In this document: positions 973-51,066 of the stretch, piece by piece
Position numbering within the stretch: position 1 is the first letter of the stretch
Layout of the letters: every line of letters starts with the position of its first letter
NCBI GenBank assembly: GCA_018817165.1
Contig: JAHITY010000128.1
Span: 5,161 to 69,160 of the forward strand
Direction: 5' to 3'
Length of the DNA: 64,000 nt
DNA from: Candidatus Omnitrophota bacterium
Lineage (GTDB): Bacteria; Omnitrophota; Gorgyraeia; B26-G9
Program-made: the position numbers and the translations under genes
Notes under the pieces: model-generated
What the model was told of the DNA's origin: nothing
Database searches by the model: none
What the model saw: the letters and a program-made list of their open reading frames with translations, nothing else

Positions 973-1064
973 GGCGTTCTTAATTATATTAAGGAACGTT
1001 TTTTTATTTAAAGACTATGGCGTCTTTTCCCTCAGAGCTATTGAGAGAACAGACGCTTTTTTTA
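973..1064 (+). terminator. Two tandem intrinsic terminator-like hairpins after the sigma gene
   Basis: GGCGTTCTTAA..TTAAGGAACG followed by a T7 run, then GGCGTCT..AGACGC followed by a T7 run. Confidence 0.5.
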
Positions 1065-1090
1065 TTTTAAAGCTCTTTGATAATTTAAAA

Positions 1091-3195: not shown

Positions 3196-3306
3196 AATAT
3201 AAAATTTGATTTAGCCCGTGCCTTTGTTTTAAATTACTAAAGGTGCGGGTAAAATCAAAACATTCCGCCATAAGGCGGCGGGATATTTAATGGGAGGGGA
3301 AATAAA

Positions 3307-3648
3307 ATGAAACTGATAATAGCAATGATTCAACCGCATAAATTACCGGATGTTAAAAAAGCGCTTTTTGAAGCAGATGTACACAAGATGACAGTAACCA
3401 ATGTTTTAGGTTGCGGGCAGCAAAAAGGTTTTACTGAAACATACCGCGGAGTTATTCATGAAGTTAATTTATTGAAAAAACTAAAACTTGAAATCGCGGT
3501 AAATGAGCAATATGTAAAAACTACAGTAGACGCGATTATTAAAGGCGCGCGGATCGGTAAAATCGGGGATGGTAAGATCTTTGTCCTGGATATGCCGGAA
3601 TGTATTCGGATTAGAACCGGAGAGACTGGTTCAAAAGCAATTGGCTGA
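3307..3648 (+). CDS. glnK: Nitrogen regulatory protein P-II (GlnK-type, copy 1)
   Basis: 113 aa. [54 protein letters not shown]. Located directly downstream of amt. Confidence 0.93.
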
Positions 3649-3683
3649 CTTGACGTCGCTAAAAAAGCTCCGTAAGTCAGGTG
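3643..3683 (+). promoter_or_regulatory. Solo module-C hairpin of the N-leader repeat, beginning inside the glnK1 stop codon
   Basis: GGCTGACTTGACG-TCGCTAAAAAAGCT-CCGTAAGTCAGG followed by TGCTCATTTAA. It has the same stem as the other C modules and a different loop. Confidence 0.5.
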
Positions 3684-3774
3684 CTCATTTAATTATTAAG
3701 TTACCGAAAACAAGTTTTTTTTACTTGTATATTTGTAAATAACTAACTGGTACATTGAAGTACCCACAAAAAAC

Positions 3775-3824
3775 AAAGACGTTTTGATCCTTTTTTAAAA
3801 AAGGGTTGAAACGTCTTTTTATTT
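3775..3824 (+). terminator. Intrinsic terminator after the amt1-glnK1 operon
   Basis: 10-bp stem AAAGACGTTT/AAACGTCTTT, with an inner CCTTTTTT/AAAAAAGG hairpin in the loop, followed by TTTTTATTT. Confidence 0.6.
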
Positions 3825-3834
3825 AGGTGATATA

Positions 3835-4014
3835 ATGGAAAATATAAATTTGATTCAAGCCCTAAAGCAAGTTAAAGAAGAACGGGGCTATACCTTGTAT
3901 GATTTATCTAAGAAATTGGATATACAGGTCTCTACGGTTTCTCGCTGGTTTAAAACAAATAGAATTAATCGGGTTTACGCGGAGTTAGTAAAAGAAAAAC
4001 TAAAACTTTTTTGA
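3835..4014 (+). CDS. Small HTH DNA-binding protein (59 aa, XRE-like). It is not in the ORF track, which has a 60-aa cutoff
   Basis: MENINLIQALKQVKEERGYTLYDLSKKLDIQVSTVSRWFKTNRINRVYAELVKEKLKLF. It has a helix-turn-helix (LYDLSKKLDIQVSTVSRW) and lies between the two amt-glnK modules. Confidence 0.45.
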   Translation: MENINLIQALKQVKEERGYTLYDLSKKLDIQVSTVSRWFKTNRINRVYAELVKEKLKLF

Positions 4015-5775: not shown

Positions 5776-5872
5776 GAATTTTATTGACAAGTTACCAGAA
5801 AATTGATAAAGTTACTTTAATCATATAGGCACAAAGAAGTGCTTAAAAATGAGGCATAATGAAAAAGACAAT

Positions 5873-5912
5873 GGTGTTCTTTTGGTTGTATAAAAGAACG
5901 CCATTTTTATTT
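5873..5912 (+). terminator. Terminator-like hairpin between glnK2 and glnN
   Basis: GGTGTTCTTTT-GGTTGTAT-AAAAGAACGCC (11 bp with one G.U) followed by ATTTTTATTT. Confidence 0.4.
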
Positions 5913-5958: not shown

Positions 5959-8061
5959 ATGGCAAGTGTAACTAAAATTTTTGGGGAGCTGACTTTTAGT
6001 AAAAAAGTCATGGCGGAAAAGTTAAGCAAGGATGTGTATAGTAAATTACTGGCAACTATCGAAGGCGGACAAGCGCTGGATGAGTCAATTGCCGGTGATG
6101 TGGCTCATGCAATGAAGGAATGGGCAATTGAAAACGGAGCAACCCATTTCACTCATTGGTTTCAACCGCAACGCGGCGGCACTGCGGAAAAACATGATGC
6201 TTTTCTGAGCTATGGTAAGAATGGCGAAATAGTTGACAGATTATCAGCCAGACAGCTTATTCAATCAGAGCCTGATGCATCATCATTTCCATCAGGGGGA
6301 ATGCGTTCTACTTTTGAAGCACGTGGATATACTGCTTGGGACCCGACATCTCCCGCGTTTTTATTAGAAGCGGGTGATACCAAGACTTTGGTAATCCCAT
6401 CTGTTTTCTTATCCTGGACAGGTGATGTTTTAGATCTAAAGACTCCGATGCTGCGTTCAATGAAAGCAGTTAGCAAAGCAGCGCTTAGATTGCAGGGACT
6501 GTTGGGTAATAAAAAAGTTAAATCAATTAAAGTTTTTGGCGGACCAGAACAAGAATATTTTCTTTTCTCAAAGCAACTTTTTGAAACGCGTCCGGACTTA
6601 ATTATTTGCGGACGGACTTTATTCGGTGCTCAGCCGGCAAAAGGCCAGCAAATGGAAGATCATTATTTTGGCGCGATCAAATCAAAAGTAATTGAGTTTA
6701 TGGAAGATTTTGATAATGAATTGTACCGCAGAGGAATTCCCGCGAAAACTCGTCATAATGAAGTTTCGCCAAACCAGTTTGAAATCGCTCCTTTATATGA
6801 AGAGGTAAATTTGGCAATAGATCATAATCTGCAATTAATGGATATTATCCAAAAAGTCGCTGATCGTTATGATTTGGTTGCTGTGCTTCATGAAAAACCG
6901 CTGGGCGGCGTAAATGGTTCGGGAAAACATTTTAATATGTCGATCGGTGATAATACGGGCGCTAATTATTTTGAGCCATCAAGCAGTCCTCAGAATAATC
7001 TGATTTTTCTCCTCTCTTTAGGCGCGCTTATGCTGGGTGTTGACAAATTTGGCGGATTATTAAGGGGTGTGGTTGCTGATGCGGGAAATGATCATCGCTT
7101 GGGTGCTAATGAAGCTCCGCCGGCAATTATCTCAGTTTATCTGGGTGAATATCTTGATGCTATTCTTAATGAAATCGAGGGAATAGGCGCGGTTACTGAT
7201 AAAAAACTCTCGGAAATTTATTTAGGGCTGCAAGATTTGCCAAAAGTAGCAAAAGATACTTCTGATAGAAATAGAACATCACCATTGGCTTTTACTGGCA
7301 ATAAATTTGAGTTCAGAGCAGTGGGTTCATCACAGAACTGTGCTGAGGCAGCTACTTTATTAAATATGCTTATGGCTTATGGATATAATGAAATTGCTGA
7401 TGGAATTGAGAAAAGTACAGCAAAATCAGATGCTAAAGCAATTGAAGTATTAGAAAAAGTATTGAAAAAAACAAAACATGTGCGGTTTGAGGGAAATAAT
7501 TATTCCGAAAAATGGCATAAAGAAGCAGCCAAGCGCGGATTGCCAAATACAAAAAATACTCCTGAAGCTTTAGAACAGTTTTTACAAAAAGATGTAATTA
7601 AATTGTATGAAAGCATGGGTATTTTAACTGAAAAAGAAGTTCATTCAAAAATCGAAATTAAACTTGAAGCCTATAATAAAATTAAGGAAATCGAGTTTAA
7701 AACAGCAATGAATATGGCTAAAACATTGGTGATGCCGGCGATATTAAAGCAGATTGGATTACTTGCTGACGCGAATGCTGGAATAAAATCAGCTGGAATT
7801 AAAACAATAAGCAGCATTGCTTCAGATATAAAAGAAGCGAATAAAGTTTATGAGGCATTACAGGTTGGAATCAGTGGTTTGAATAAAGAATTAACAATGG
7901 CAGCAAAGGCTGATGATGAGTTGAAGAAATCAAAACTCATGGCTGGAAAATGTGTTGCTGCTTTAGATAAGCTAAGGGTTGCGGTAGATACAGCTGAAGA
8001 ATTAGTTGCTGATGAACTTTGGCCAATGGCAAAATATCAGGAACTATTGCTGGTTTTATAA
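5959..8061 (+). CDS. glnN: Glutamine synthetase type III (GlnN)
   Basis: 700 aa. N-terminal KEWAIENGATHFTHWFQP block characteristic of GSIII. Catalytic NGSGKHFNMS. The size matches GSIII rather than GSI. Confidence 0.88.
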   Translation: MASVTKIFGELTFSKKVMAEKLSKDVYSKLLATIEGGQALDESIAGDVAHAMKEWAIENGATHFTHWFQPQRGGTAEKHDAFLSYGKNGEIVDRLSARQLIQSEPDASSFPSGGMRSTFEARGYTAWDPTSPAFLLEAGDTKTLVIPSVFLSWTGDVLDLKTPMLRSMKAVSKAALRLQGLLGNKKVKSIKVFGGPEQEYFLFSKQLFETRPDLIICGRTLFGAQPAKGQQMEDHYFGAIKSKVIEFMEDFDNELYRRGIPAKTRHNEVSPNQFEIAPLYEEVNLAIDHNLQLMDIIQKVADRYDLVAVLHEKPLGGVNGSGKHFNMSIGDNTGANYFEPSSSPQNNLIFLLSLGALMLGVDKFGGLLRGVVADAGNDHRLGANEAPPAIISVYLGEYLDAILNEIEGIGAVTDKKLSEIYLGLQDLPKVAKDTSDRNRTSPLAFTGNKFEFRAVGSSQNCAEAATLLNMLMAYGYNEIADGIEKSTAKSDAKAIEVLEKVLKKTKHVRFEGNNYSEKWHKEAAKRGLPNTKNTPEALEQFLQKDVIKLYESMGILTEKEVHSKIEIKLEAYNKIKEIEFKTAMNMAKTLVMPAILKQIGLLADANAGIKSAGIKTISSIASDIKEANKVYEALQVGISGLNKELTMAAKADDELKKSKLMAGKCVAALDKLRVAVDTAEELVADELWPMAKYQELLLVL

Positions 8062-8098
8062 GGATTAGTTTAGTTGATAATTAACAATTAGGATCTAA

Positions 8099-8135
8099 AG
8101 AGCGATACTTTAAAAAAGTATCGCTCTTATGTCCA
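8099..8135 (+). terminator. Intrinsic terminator after glnN
   Basis: AGAGCGATACT-TTAAAAAA-GTATCGCTCT, an 11-bp perfect stem followed by TAT. Confidence 0.5.
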
Positions 8136-8156
8136 TTAAAAAGTAACAAAATATTC

Positions 8157-8240
8157 ATAATAATGACTCCAAAAGTGCCTGCTTGGCCGCAGTCATTTTG
8201 GACTAAATCCCTGCCAAAAAGCGGCGGGATCATTTAAAGG
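8157..8240 (+). promoter_or_regulatory. N-leader repeat unit, modules A+B, upstream of the amidotransferase gene
   Basis: ATAATAATGACTCC, hairpin A TCCAAAAGTGCCTGC-TTGGCC-GCAGTCATTTTGGA (8168..8202), hairpin B CCTGCC-AAAAAGC-GGCGGG, then ATCATTTAAAGG and ATG 8251. Confidence 0.6.
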
Positions 8241-8250
8241 ACATTTAAAA

Positions 8251-8979
8251 ATGATATATTTTCTTGAACACGAACCAATCGAAGGCCCGGGGATGTTAAA
8301 GCCTTTGTTTGAAAATAATGGTTTTCTTACTTCGGTAATCAAGCTTTATGATAATCAGGATTTACCGCAGGACTTTGATTCAATAGAAGCAATTGTAAGT
8401 CTTGGCGGCCCAATGAATGTTTATCAAGAAGAGGTTTATCCTTTTTTAAAAAAAGAAGATGAATTCCTTAAAAAAATTATTAAGCTAGATATCCCTTGTT
8501 TGGGTATATGTCTTGGCTCGCAATTAATCGCTAAAGCGGAAAAAGCGCAAGTTAAGAAAGCGGAAAAAGAAGAAATCGGCTGGTTTAAAGTCTCGTTAAC
8601 TGAACATGGCAAGAAAGATGATTTATTCCATCTGGTAAATGAGCAACTTGAAGTTTTTCAATGGCATTCAGATACTTTTAGCGTTCCGGTTGGCGGGGTT
8701 TTATTGGCGCAGGGTTCTGTTTGCCGCAATCAGGCGTTTAGAATAGGTAATAATGTTTATGGATTGCAGTTTCATCTGGAAGTTACGGATAAAGAAGTTT
8801 TTGATTGGACTGGCAAATATTTTAATATTGCGGATTCAGAAAAACAGGAATACGCGAAAGATATGCTGTCAAAATATAGCGAAATAAAAAAAGATTTTGA
8901 GCTGCAAATGGATGTTATTGGCGCGAATTTTCTTAAAATTATTGAGAAGAGAAAGATCGCTGTGGCACAGGAAGTTTAA
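8251..8979 (+). CDS. Class I glutamine amidotransferase-like protein (stand-alone GATase1 domain)
   Basis: Catalytic-Cys motif GICLGSQLIA, and a downstream His in QFHLEV. 242 aa. Confidence 0.7.
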   Translation: MIYFLEHEPIEGPGMLKPLFENNGFLTSVIKLYDNQDLPQDFDSIEAIVSLGGPMNVYQEEVYPFLKKEDEFLKKIIKLDIPCLGICLGSQLIAKAEKAQVKKAEKEEIGWFKVSLTEHGKKDDLFHLVNEQLEVFQWHSDTFSVPVGGVLLAQGSVCRNQAFRIGNNVYGLQFHLEVTDKEVFDWTGKYFNIADSEKQEYAKDMLSKYSEIKKDFELQMDVIGANFLKIIEKRKIAVAQEV

Positions 8980-9016
8980 AAAATTTTAAATATCAGTGCC
9001 CAAAAATTAGGCAAAT

Positions 9017-9342
9017 TAAAATAATGATTCCCGAATCAGCAGCTAGTCGCTGCTTCTCGGGCTAAATTTCCCGCCAGAAAACAGCGGGATAAACGAGCAG
9101 GCTGACTTGACGTCGCATAGAACGTTCCGTAAGTCAGGCTAAATAATAATGATTCCAAAATATCTGCTTGGCCGCAGCTATTTCGGACTAAATTCGAGCA
9201 GGCTGACTTGACGTCGCATAGAACGTTCCGTAAGTCAGGCTAAATAATAATGATTCCGAAAGTATCTGCTTGGCCGCAGCTATTTCGGACTAAATTCGAG
9301 CAGGCTGACTTGACGTCGCATAGAACGTTCCGTAAGTCAGGC
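9017..9342 (+). repeat. Tandem array of 3 N-leader repeat units (A'+B+C, A+C, A+C) upstream of the Fis-like gene and gltBD
   Basis: Units are at 9017..9139, 9142..9240 and 9243..9342, with a period of about 101 nt. The C loop here is TCGCATAGAACGTT. It ends TCTCATTTAAGGGGAT followed by ATG 9359. Confidence 0.7.
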
Positions 9343-9358
9343 TCTCATTTAAGGGGAT

Positions 9359-9622
9359 ATGAGCGCATACACAGATAAAATTAGTATTCTCCAAGAACAA
9401 ATAAAGGATGTTGAGACTTTTTTTCTAAAAAAAGATACAAAACATTTATATAAACACATATTGGAAATAGTCGAAAAACCTTTGATTGAAATGGTTTTAA
9501 AATCAACAAAAGGCAATCAGAAAAAAGCGGCGGTGCTTTTGGGGATTAACCGAAATACATTGTTTGTTAAAATTAAAAAACTTAAGATAAACGCTAAAGA
9601 ATTCAAAGATGCTTCAGATTGA
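9359..9622 (+). CDS. Fis-family (HTH_8) DNA-binding mini-protein
   Basis: 87 aa. C-terminal [24 protein letters not shown] is a Fis/NtrC-type helix-turn-helix. It lies 37 nt upstream of gltB on the same strand. Confidence 0.6.
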
Positions 9623-15755: not shown

Positions 15756-17093
15756 TTAAAGAATATCACTTGCGAGATCAGCAAGTTCCGAGCGTTCTCC
15801 TTTTTCCAGGTTTATATGAGTATAAATCTTTTGACCTTTCATCTTATCAATCAAATAAGCTAAGCCATTCGAAAAAGTATTTAAGTAGGGATGGTCTATT
15901 TGAAAAATATCTCCGGTGAAAACCATTTTTGTATTATCCCCGGCGCGGGTAATAATAGTTTTTATTTCATGCGGAGTCAGGTTTTGCGCTTCATCAACAA
16001 TAAAGAAAATATCGACTAAACTTCTTCCTCTTATATAAGAAAGCGGAGCAATTACCAGCTTTTCTTCATCAAGTAATTTTTGCAGTTTTTTTTGTTTTGA
16101 ATCAGATTCAATGAATGTATGCTTTATAACTCCCAGATTGTCATAAAGCGGCTGCATGTAAGGTTCAAGTTTTGAGTTGATATCCCCAGGTAAATAACCA
16201 ATATCCTTATTGCTCAAAGGAACAATAGGCCTGGCCATATAAATCTGAAAGTATTCTTTTTTATTTGCTAGGGCGCCAGCTAAAGCGAGCAGAGTTTTTC
16301 CTGTGCCGGCTTTTCCGGAAATGGTTACCAGCTGGATCTTAGGATTCATTAAAGCGTGTAGAGCGAATATTTGTTCCGCGTTTCTCGGAGTAATTCCATA
16401 AGCTGATTCTTTATTTATTCGTTGAATTTTTTTTGTTTCCGGATTGCAATAAGAAAGAACTGATTTTTTCCCATTGCGCATGATGATGTATTCATTTGGT
16501 AAAATTTCTCTTTTGGAAGATAATTCTGATGGATCGATTTCAAAAGGCTCTTTGTACATCAAATCAATCAATGCATCAGAGACATCTTCGACAACTCGGT
16601 AGCCGGTATAAAGCTCAGTAATATCTTTAACATGGTCGCTGGTGTAGTCAGCAGCAATTAAACCAACGGCTTTTGCTTTCATGCGCAGATTAACATCTTT
16701 GCTGACAAGGGTGACTTGGCGATTAGGATTCTCATCAGCCAGACAATAAGCCGTATTAAGAATCCTATGGTCAGCTAGGTCGCTGGAAAAAGTTAGGGAT
16801 AGGTCTTCGTGCATTGCTTGACCGAGCTTGATGATTATTTTACTTCTATTCGGACCAATGCGCACGCCTTCATCAAACAGCTGATCCCCGCTTAAATTAT
16901 CCAAAGCTCGGACAAATTCGCGGGCGTGAAAATTTAGGGTCTCATTACCTTTTTTAAAGCGGTCTAGTTCTTCCAATACATATATCGGAACAACTATATC
17001 GTGATCTTTAAATTGATAAAGACAGGCGCTATCATGGAGAATGACGTTTGTGTCAAGGACAAATGTTTTTGCTTTTTTTTCTGCCATATCCAA
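15756..17093 (-). CDS. PhoH2-type protein (N-terminal PIN domain + PhoH-like ATPase)
   Basis: PIN-like VLDTNVILHD, and Walker A GKAGTGKT with PhoH-family downstream blocks. 445 aa. Confidence 0.85.
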   Translation of the reverse strand: MDMAEKKAKTFVLDTNVILHDSACLYQFKDHDIVVPIYVLEELDRFKKGNETLNFHAREFVRALDNLSGDQLFDEGVRIGPNRSKIIIKLGQAMHEDLSLTFSSDLADHRILNTAYCLADENPNRQVTLVSKDVNLRMKAKAVGLIAADYTSDHVKDITELYTGYRVVEDVSDALIDLMYKEPFEIDPSELSSKREILPNEYIIMRNGKKSVLSYCNPETKKIQRINKESAYGITPRNAEQIFALHALMNPKIQLVTISGKAGTGKTLLALAGALANKKEYFQIYMARPIVPLSNKDIGYLPGDINSKLEPYMQPLYDNLGVIKHTFIESDSKQKKLQKLLDEEKLVIAPLSYIRGRSLVDIFFIVDEAQNLTPHEIKTIITRAGDNTKMVFTGDIFQIDHPYLNTFSNGLAYLIDKMKGQKIYTHINLEKGERSELADLASDIL

Positions 17094-34500: not shown

Positions 34501-36102
<1,602 letters not shown>

Positions 36103-36106
36103 TAAA

Positions 36107-36814
36107 ATGGTAAAACAAGTAAAATCAGAAAAATCATATATCAATGCTTTGAGTAAAATCAGTAAAGCAATTACAAGTGATCTTTATCTTGAAGATATGT
36201 TAAAGCTTATTGTAACTGTTACCGCGAATGTTATGCACGCGAAAATTTGCGCGCTTTGGCTATTAGATGAAAAGAACCAAACTTTAAAAATTAAAGCTAC
36301 TCAAGCTTTGAGCAGTGAATATCTGAAGGAAAGATCAATTAATGTTGGGGAAGGCGTTGTCGGAATGGTTGCGAAAACTAAGCAGCCGATTATTATTGCT
36401 GATGTTCTTTTAGATCCGCAGTATAAAGAAAAAAAATTAGCAAAAAAAGAAAAGTTTGTTTCAATGCTTAGCGTTCCGATGATGGTTAAACAAAAAGTGA
36501 TCGGTGTTATTAATTGTTATACTACAAAAAAATACGATTTTGAAAAAAGCGATGTCGAGGTTTTAATGACTGTGGCTAATCAAGCAGCTGTTGCAATCGA
36601 AAATACGGAGCTGTTAGTTAAGACTAGAGTTATTCAGGAAGAATTGGAAACAAGAAAAAAAGTTGAAAAAGCAAAAGGGATATTGATGAAGGATCAGAAT
36701 GTTGATGAAGATGAAGCTTATAATATGCTGAGAAAATCAAGCATGTCTAAGCGTATATCTATGAAAGATATTGCTGAAGCAATCATTCTTTCTTTCGAGA
36801 TTAAGAAGGGGTAA
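36107..36814 (+). CDS. GAF-ANTAR regulator (RNA-binding antitermination-type output domain)
   Basis: N-terminal GAF-like domain. C-terminal VEKAKGILMKDQNVDEDEAYNMLRKSSMSKRISMKDIAEAII is a clear ANTAR signature. The ORF track start 36077 overlaps pyrG, so ATG 36107 is used. Confidence 0.75.
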   Translation: MVKQVKSEKSYINALSKISKAITSDLYLEDMLKLIVTVTANVMHAKICALWLLDEKNQTLKIKATQALSSEYLKERSINVGEGVVGMVAKTKQPIIIADVLLDPQYKEKKLAKKEKFVSMLSVPMMVKQKVIGVINCYTTKKYDFEKSDVEVLMTVANQAAVAIENTELLVKTRVIQEELETRKKVEKAKGILMKDQNVDEDEAYNMLRKSSMSKRISMKDIAEAIILSFEIKKG

Positions 36815-50687: not shown

Positions 50688-50766
50688 CGGGGCATGGCTC
50701 AGCTTGGCTTAGAGCGCCTGGTTTGGGACCAGGATGTCGGTGGTTCGAATCCACCTGCCCCGACCA
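50688..50766 (+). tRNA. tRNA-Pro (anticodon TGG), CCA encoded
   Basis: Acceptor CGGGGCA/TGCCCCG, anticodon stem CCTGG/CCAGG with loop TTTGGGA, T-arm GGTGG-TTCGAAT-CCACC, long D-loop. Confidence 0.85.
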
Positions 50767-50851
50767 AAAAATAGTTGTAGAGTTTGGGGAGCAGGACATT
50801 AAAGTATTTTGCTTAGAGCTTATAACTTTGATGTCCTTAGTTTCTAAAAAT

Positions 50852-50928
<77 letters not shown>

Positions 50929-50988
50929 ATTTAACAGGCTTAACCATCCTTCTCTATAATTTATTTTTGGATTAAAATTAATTTATGT

Positions 50989-51066
50989 GGTGGATGTAGC
51001 TCAGTTGGTTAGAGCTCATGATTGTGGTTCATGAGGCCGGGGGTTCGAGTCCCCTCATCCACCCCA
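50989..51066 (+). tRNA. tRNA-His (anticodon GTG) with genomically encoded G-1 and C73, CCA encoded
   Basis: G-1 + GTGGATG/CATCCAC + C + CCA. Anticodon stem CATGA/TCATG with loop TTGTGGT. T-arm GGGGG-TTCGAGT-CCCCT. Confidence 0.85.

Follow-up and report, generated by a model that had tools for sequence, protein, structure and literature searches.

A conserved, covarying hairpin in nitrogen-gene leaders of one Omnitrophota subclade, a candidate cis-regulatory RNA motif

Introduction

The guanidine-II (mini-ykkC) riboswitch is built from two small hairpins with ACGR tetraloops as conserved apical loops, standing in tandem just 5' of the Shine-Dalgarno (SD) sequence. Intercistronic stabilizer or processing hairpins, such as those of the puf operon or the malE-malF REP, lie between cistrons beside AU-rich single-stranded stretches, which are typical of RNase E/Y entry sites, and are usually conserved in structure only. 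In enterobacteria and pseudomonads, the imperfect palindromes known as REP and BIME elements, which measure about 35 nt and contain a bulge or mismatch, form mosaics with other motifs inside operons and at 3' ends, vary between strains and can stabilize upstream mRNA (PMC2817692, PMC3116915). REPs typically exceed 100 copies per genome, are dispersed and alternate in orientation within BIMEs (PMC2817692). In nitrogen-operon leaders, attenuators of the EutV/NasR/AmiR type are read by an RNA-binding protein, the ANTAR recognition architecture consisting of dual hairpins with hexanucleotide loops bearing A1 and G4, the second of which overlaps the 5' arm of a terminator (Ramesh et al., 2012, PMC3369931).

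In the window analyzed here, i.e., the whole 64-kb stretch of Omnitrophota DNA, the leaders and spacers of a nitrogen-assimilation cluster carry a 35-nt imperfect hairpin, designated module A, which shares features with all of these systems. Omnitrophota are uncultured and, to our knowledge, nothing is known of the regulation of their nitrogen assimilation. Like the ANTAR targets, module A is a small hairpin with a 6-nt loop in nitrogen-operon leaders, but its stem comprises 13-14 bp and not 3-7 bp and, in contrast to the P1/P2 pair, it is found singly or in 100-nt arrays downstream of the attenuators. Compared with REPs, copies of module A are few, belong to one regulon and one orientation, lack a GTAG-type 5' tetranucleotide and have loop and single-stranded flanks conserved across species. 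The stems are much longer than those of guanidine-II, many leaders have a single module A and the gene context is unrelated to guanidine; however, the GGCC/GGUC core of the loop is self-complementary, making loop-loop kissing conceivable. Finally, like the stabilizer hairpins, module A is found between cistrons beside AU-rich single-stranded sequence, an arrangement compatible with segmental mRNA stability, whereas in module A also the sequence is conserved across saturated neutral divergence and recurs at several places within one regulon.

Results

Nitrogen cluster with promoter-like boxes and attenuators

The first 14 kb of the window constitute a nitrogen-assimilation cluster with all genes on the + strand, in the order sigma-like, PII-like, amt1, glnK, small HTH, amt2, glnK, type III glutamine synthetase, GATase, Fis-type HTH and gltB. 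A promoter-like box, GTTACC-N15-TTACTT, is found three times versus 0.34 expected, each time just 5' of an ANTAR-type leader, and is kept in related Omnitrophota loci. It may be read by the product of the sigma70-like gene at 214-816, which all relatives have in synteny. The attenuator leaders belong to the PII-like, HTH-amt2-glnK and glutamine synthetase operons. In each of them, two hairpins, P1 and the 3-bp P2, carry A..G.. hexaloops, and the 5' arm of an intrinsic terminator overlaps with P2. The likely antiterminator of all three is a GAF-ANTAR protein encoded further downstream in the window. As modules A, B, and C (see below) follow the attenuators or lie between cistrons, they are inside transcribed units.

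819-845, 3700-3726 and 5791-5817, + strand: promoter-like boxes
948-1003, + strand: ANTAR-type attenuator, P1 CACAC[AUUGUU]GUGUG and P2 AAC[AAAGGC]GUU, overlapping a terminator; upstream of module A
3749-3822 and 5828-5905, + strand: equivalent ANTAR-type attenuators
1186-1506, + strand: PII-like gene, encoding a divergent PII-like protein of 106 aa and heading the operon
3835-4014, + strand: Cro/C1-type HTH gene, 59 aa
9359-9622, + strand: Fis-type HTH_8 gene
36077-36814, + strand: GAF-ANTAR protein gene, 245 aa (ANTAR E=2e-20, GAF E=1e-23), directly after carA-carB-purF-pyrG

Following the first attenuator, the region 1008-1075 (+) contains another terminator-like hairpin (GCGUCU...AGACGC plus U run); a competing upstream hairpin, AAAGAC[UAUGGC]GUCUUU, which is kept in the related loci L082, L084, L089, and L118, could be an antiterminator. 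Beyond the cluster, a PIN-PhoH protein is encoded at 15756-17093 on the - strand.

Module A and its partner hairpins

A degenerate pattern search for the 35-nt unit yielded six copies of module A in the window, all on the + strand, whereas zero are expected by chance (100 shuffles). In addition, two diverged copies (A') were found, each opening one array and having the same flanks. All A and A' copies are located inside the first 10 kb of the 64-kb window.

1103-1137, + strand: module A copy 1, leader of the PII-like gene; mismatch C.U, pair 4/32 G-C; flanked by AAUAAUAAUGAU on the 5' side (1091-1102) and CUUAAUUC on the 3' side
1519-1550, + strand: A' copy 1, CCCGA..AGCAGC-UGGUC-GCUGCU..UCGGG, opening the array that separates the PII-like gene from amt1
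1616-1650, + strand: module A copy 2; mismatch U.C
1715-1749, + strand: module A copy 3, exact tandem duplicate of copy 2 with a period of 99 nt
8168-8202, + strand: module A copy 4, leader of the GATase gene; pair 4/32 A-U, not G-C
9030-9061, + strand: A' copy 2, loop UAGUC, opening the array in front of the HTH_8 gene and gltB
9154-9187, + strand: module A copy 5, 34 nt; bulged G8 deleted, 4/32 A.C, 10/27 A-U
9255-9289, + strand: module A copy 6; pair 10/27 A-U

Each unit folds into the expected hairpin (z = -2.1 to -3.5). The core is a hairpin of 13-14 bp whose apical part, CUGC-U(N)GG(Y)C-GCAG, hardly varies, the 6-nt loop UNGGYC occurring in the variants UUGGCC, UAGGCC, UGGGCC, and UUGGUC. 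The stem tolerates a bulge and a pyrimidine mismatch; across copies, the bulge is G, C or deleted and the 11/26 mismatch reads C.U, U.C, U.U, A-U, or U.G. Single-stranded sequence on either side is conserved as well, UAA.GAUU 5' and ACUAAAUUC 3' of the hairpin, and AAUAAUAAUGA always precedes it.

These data bear out the helix proposed in an earlier note on this DNA, including all bases quoted there. The outer stem indeed reads UCCGAAA/UUUCGGA in the units at 1103, 1616, 1715, and 9255 and UCCAAAA/UUUUGGA in the unit at 8168, where the double change affects unit positions 4/32 and converts G-C to A-U with pairing kept. Likewise, the described exchange at the inner pair 10/27 holds, with G-C in 1103, 1616, 1715, and 8168 and A-U in 9154 and 9255. 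For the latter two units, previously placed at 9153 and 9254, only the starts have to be corrected, to 9154 and 9255, respectively; the former shows the A.C reported for it, resulting from G4>A opposite C32, but comprises 34 nt, the bulged G8 being missing as well. The flip of the 11/26 mismatch is real as well (C.U in 1103 and 8168, U.C elsewhere), but it is located at 1113/1128 and 1626/1641 and not at 1118/1631.

The leaders are mosaics of three hairpin modules in the order (A (C) B)n or A C; after the final B or C come (C)UCAUUUAA and the SD sequence. A second covarying hairpin, either B or C, always comes after module A and abuts the SD. Module B is a longer three-part hairpin showing double changes in 7 of 16 pairs. 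It is also present in the related loci L082, L118, L121, L122, and L093, with wholly different stems in L122 (2400) and L093, and where no further module comes after it, CUCAUUUAA and the SD follow. The short, GC-rich hairpin of module C stands immediately 5' of AUCAUUUA and the SD and is present also in relatives without module A (L089, 5689-5761; L123, 1836-1910). An alternative pairing of its 5' CUCCC with the SD GGGAG would be possible. In predicted folds, the SD is unpaired and no obvious switch is seen.

1561-1601, 1661-1701 and 1760-1800, + strand: module B (GGCUGACUUGACG...CGUAAGUCAGGC), the last copy followed by CUCAUUUAAAGGAGG and the amt1 start
3640-3683, + strand: module B at the 3' end of the first transcription unit, where it overlaps the glnK1 stop codon
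9097-9140, 9198-9241 and 9300-9343, + strand: module B, the last copy abutting the SD of the HTH_8 gene
1147-1165, + strand: module C (CCCGCC-loop-GGCGGG), followed by AUCAUUUAGGGAGG (SD)
3265-3283, 8210-8228 and 9070-9089, + strand: other copies of module C

Tandem amplification of A-B units is found in this genome only (1604-1799 and 9141-9343), with a period of 99 nt at 100% identity in the first array and of 101-102 nt in the second. Since the units at 1616 and 1715 reside in 100% identical 97-nt tandem copies, they are counted once. The copy number of the arrays may be uncertain, as a JGI contig of the same organism (L081) ends within the first one, indicating an assembly break at the repeat.

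Covariation and conservation of module A

Already in the window, the six substituted hairpin positions make up exactly three partner pairs, for which a hand count gives a chance of C(14,3)/C(28,6) = 364/376,740 or about 1e-3, complementarity not yet being required. The alignment was extended to 13 sequences (12 distinct) by combining the six window copies with seven from related Omnitrophota loci, a small sample for covariation in which the 12-14 distinct sequences come from at most five genomes and are not independent. Standard pairs occupy 99.4% of the pair cells in this alignment, whereas slid registers achieve pairing of 18-44% only. Independent variation of the paired positions in a larger alignment had been named in the earlier note as the observation that would speak against its proposal of a selected secondary structure. 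Instead, the pairs covary when the seven homologues are included, with both-sided changes in 5 of the 13 pairs (3/33, 4/32, 7/29, 10/27, and 14/23), and none of 500 column shuffles matches the observed pairing, double-change or covariation values. In line with this, RNAalifold, run independently, gives the same helix. Three compensated pairs are contributed by the L122 copy (3/33 A-U, 7/29 G-C, and 14/23 A-U), and the L118 copy, which has no bulge, shows A-U at 4/32 as in the unit at 8168. Intermediates, as suggested earlier for the A.C of the unit at 9154, are indeed observed, also in the form of G.U wobbles at 10/27 in one of the L121 copies (L121c) and at 5/31 in L122. Built from the module A alignment, a covariance model recovers A' at E of about 1e-3 (copy 1 at 1507-1558). 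With A' added, 7 of 13 pairs covary, although this alignment leans towards structure, as it was fitted to the covariance model.

The 54-nt module A unit has a mean column identity of about 91%, with identical hairpins in some cases between genomes. By contrast, the adjacent genes (amt, glnK, GS, and PII-like) are only 40-57% identical at four-fold degenerate sites; the ranges by locus are as follows.

L121 and L082: 49-67% four-fold site identity to the window
L122, L118 and L089: about 37-53% four-fold site identity to the window

Conservation that far above neutral sites is indicative of strong purifying selection on sequence and pairing or of recent spread; judging from the sequences compared, module A is likely under selection. 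With its helix, covariation and strong conservation, module A is a real and probably selected hairpin.

Distribution in related and unrelated loci

Related loci were retrieved as contigs through homologues of the PII-like protein and Amt, and the following of them contain module A.

L082 (GCA_018817585.1): two module A copies
L118 (JGI 3300040801): one module A copy
L121 (GCA_043805415.1): three module A copies
L122 (JGI 3300040801): one module A copy

All 15 copies from the five sources are co-oriented with nitrogen genes and located in their leaders or spacers, and every homologous copy in the relatives precedes hairpin B or C. In the DNA searched, module A is hence confined to nitrogen-gene leaders at constant orientation. 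Accordingly, the covariance model detected no module A in the other 54 kb of the window or in 1.3 Mb of unrelated amt loci, and the 80 Amt-selected loci of unrelated phyla (at most 65% identity), serving as negative control, contain neither an A or B core nor a covariance-model match. A scan of metagenome contigs with a pattern allowing eight N on the 3' side, where the true unit, TCC-N8-CTGCTNGGCCGCAG-N7-GGA, has seven as the helix is asymmetric, resulted in 15 matches, all by chance and in GC-rich contigs.

Relatives without module A are L084/85, L086-88, L089/90, L091/92, L093-102, L119/120, and L123. Among these are close relatives lacking it in the same leaders (L089, L093, L084, L086, and L119), while relatives at similar distance (L084-L102, L119/120, and L123) keep C- or B-like hairpins before the SD. 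Its position also varies among orthologous leaders of different genomes; for example, the amt1-glnK spacer contains B'-A-B in L121, B'-A-C-B in L082 and C alone in the window. In the DNA searched, module A belongs to one Omnitrophota subclade and has a narrow distribution.

Comparison with known RNA families and signals

No Rfam 15 family corresponds to module A at the gathering threshold, which in the whole window is reached only by three tRNAs. At E up to 10, searching the regions 850-1850 and 8050-9400 gave only chance-level matches far below threshold. A nitrogen-leader RNA motif from Omnitrophota was not found in the literature. Most likely, module A represents a new candidate cis-regulatory RNA motif that is absent from the databases searched, and its status as a candidate new Rfam family of narrow phylogenetic range is well supported.

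Several established identities do not fit. An ANTAR target is rejected because all copies start the loop with U and not A (G4 is present), and because a single hairpin of 13-14 bp is followed by ACUAAAUUC without U tract, not a P1/P2 pair overlapping a terminator. The same 3' flank disagrees with an intrinsic terminator, and none of the units coincides with a site from the terminator scan. As for REP/BIME elements, eight copies clustered within 10 kb, with zero in the remaining 54 kb of the 64 kb searched, do not correspond to a high dispersed copy number, nor does the orientation alternate, as all copies, those in arrays and in relatives included, follow the genes; a Y1 transposase was not found among the ORFs of at least 90 aa in the 64-kb window. 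Guanidine-II is dismissed due to the 6-nt UNGGYC loop in place of ACGR tetraloops and the missing Rfam match. A leader peptide is also not encoded, as the AUG within AAUAAUGAUU becomes AGG (L118 and L122) or ACG (L082a) and is not preceded by an SD, and C32>U in the unit at 8168 would replace Arg by Trp.

Further pairings and signals were rejected on similar grounds. A closing helix between AAUGA of the 5' flank and UCAUU after B/C is broken without compensation in L082a, L118, and L122. For a pseudoknot between UUGG of the loop and CUAA of the 3' flank, the loop variants are uncompensated and the geometry is implausible over a 14-bp stem. The spacing is wrong for a sigma-54 or sigma-70 promoter within or before module A, anti-SD pairing of its 5' arm would comprise 4 bp only, and a T-box-like UGGN/NCCA reading of the loop is broken by UAGGCC in L082.

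Discussion

With modest confidence, module A is interpreted as a cis-acting structured element of the + strand mRNA and probable site of a trans-acting RNA-binding factor affecting translation or stability. A sequence-specific factor, i.e., a regulatory RNA-binding protein or an endoribonuclease, would recognize the hairpin and, together with B or C, might set translation or stability of the downstream cistron. In this way, nitrogen control would gain a second, post-transcriptional layer after the ANTAR-controlled terminators. Action at the RNA level, protein binding and output on translation or stability are what we infer. The conserved apical loop and flanks along with a variable bulge and mismatch point to a protein site rather than to a ligand pocket, and the unpaired SD together with the absence of an alternative pairing supported by covariation favors an effect on the downstream cistron via a trans-acting factor.

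The alternative of a small riboswitch aptamer, in which module A would bind a nitrogen-status metabolite such as glutamine or 2-oxoglutarate, sometimes in tandem for a sharper response, with B/C as expression platform, draws on the strong conservation of sequence and structure within nitrogen-gene 5' UTRs, on the tandem copies in front of amt and gltB and on a patchy distribution which would fit a system not in need of a dedicated protein; in view of the missing Rfam match, it would be new. However, module A is a single unbranched hairpin whose irregularities possibly forming a pocket are not conserved (the bulge being variable or deleted, the mismatch becoming A-U or U.G), covariation backs no alternative pairing with the SD or with B/C and the SD is free in the predicted folds, so that such an aptamer appears unlikely. 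Distinctly improbable is a role as nitrogen-status sensor acting after ANTAR antitermination, be it as a new small riboswitch class for a nitrogen metabolite, employed singly or in three-unit arrays, or as RNA target of the PII-like protein. The latter is a candidate since it is trimeric and each array has three A-type hairpins; if it binds module A, it would be the first RNA-binding PII-family protein. Turning to explanations at the DNA level, the A-(C)-B cassettes might be portable palindromes like REP/BIME or MITE elements, with the hairpin retained through recognition of single-stranded DNA hairpins by a transposase or the replication machinery, or template switching within a quasi-palindrome might produce the double changes in one step, for which an RNA function would not be required. 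The mosaic of three palindromic modules, their varying presence and position in orthologous leaders of close relatives, the 100% identical tandem copies and the fact that both strands fold equally well are compatible with this, an identity between genomes far above that of neutral sites is expected from recent spread as well, and hairpins are known to arise and persist by template switching (PMC8794818). On the other hand, such elements would hardly be restricted to nitrogen-gene leaders in one orientation (15 of 15 copies) and to 10 of the 64 kb, REPs being abundant, dispersed and alternating in BIMEs (PMC2817692). In addition, neither a transposase nor a RAYT is encoded among the window ORFs of at least 90 aa, target-site duplications or clear terminal inverted repeats are lacking, and bulge and mismatch persist in most copies and are not 'corrected'. 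A portable palindrome is therefore considered fairly unlikely.

Binding of a dimeric transcription factor to module A as a double-stranded DNA operator or a cruciform, with the HTH_8 protein (9359-9622) and the Cro/C1-type HTH protein (3835-4014) as candidates and the arrays as multiple operators, would be compatible with the palindromic sequence, with the wobble counts given below and with the position of the largest array directly 5' of the HTH_8 gene, a classical layout for autoregulation. Nevertheless, it is very doubtful, as a dimer selects for a half-site consensus and not for symmetric double changes at five to seven positions keeping the arms complementary. The 14-bp arms are, moreover, asymmetric due to the one-sided bulge, a conserved loop of 6 nt lies between them, flank conservation is asymmetric, too, copies reside between cistrons or downstream of terminators and not at promoters, and L082 and L093 carry the HTH_8 gene without module A upstream of it. 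With regard to the strand, modules A and B together show 10 G.U versus 5 A.C on the + strand (module B, 7 G.U cells versus 3 A.C), wobble counts which lean only weakly to this strand, and summed folding energies of -183 kcal/mol for the - strand and -172 kcal/mol for the + strand do not discriminate between the two. A function of the hairpin on an antisense (- strand) transcript could thus refer to marginally more stable folds and to the A.C in two of the five single-sided changes of module A (4/32 in the unit at 9154 and, as C.A, 12/25 in L118), which would be G.U on the - strand. Conversely, the G.U of the + strand (10/27 in L121c, 5/31 and 11/26 in L122 and the seven module B cells) would become A.C, all cluster genes are on the + strand, no promoter context is seen on the - strand and the covariance model including flanks scores this strand only at E of at least 1.4, making an antisense element extremely doubtful.

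The locus exhibits a layered design, with a promoter box near the sigma-like gene, then ANTAR-type attenuators and finally a mosaic of three covarying hairpins. If module A binds a protein, as in the interpretation favored here, or a ligand, it would provide a second, post-transcriptional checkpoint on expression of ammonium transport, PII, and GOGAT, and would do so by a compact element of about 54 nt, testable in reporters. If it is a portable palindrome instead, this would be an unusual repeat family confined to one regulon.

Beside the hairpins, a few other features were noticed in the loci compared. In the window, a cluster of three tRNA genes is located at 50688-51063 (+). In L082 (2457-3221), L121 (182-946), L093 (1537-2301), and L122 (71-838), the PII-like gene and amt1 are separated by a gene of about 254 aa without Pfam hit, and L086 has a BBP2 porin-like gene at this site. 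The window genome does not carry the 254-aa gene, its place being taken by the A'-B-A-B-A-B array.
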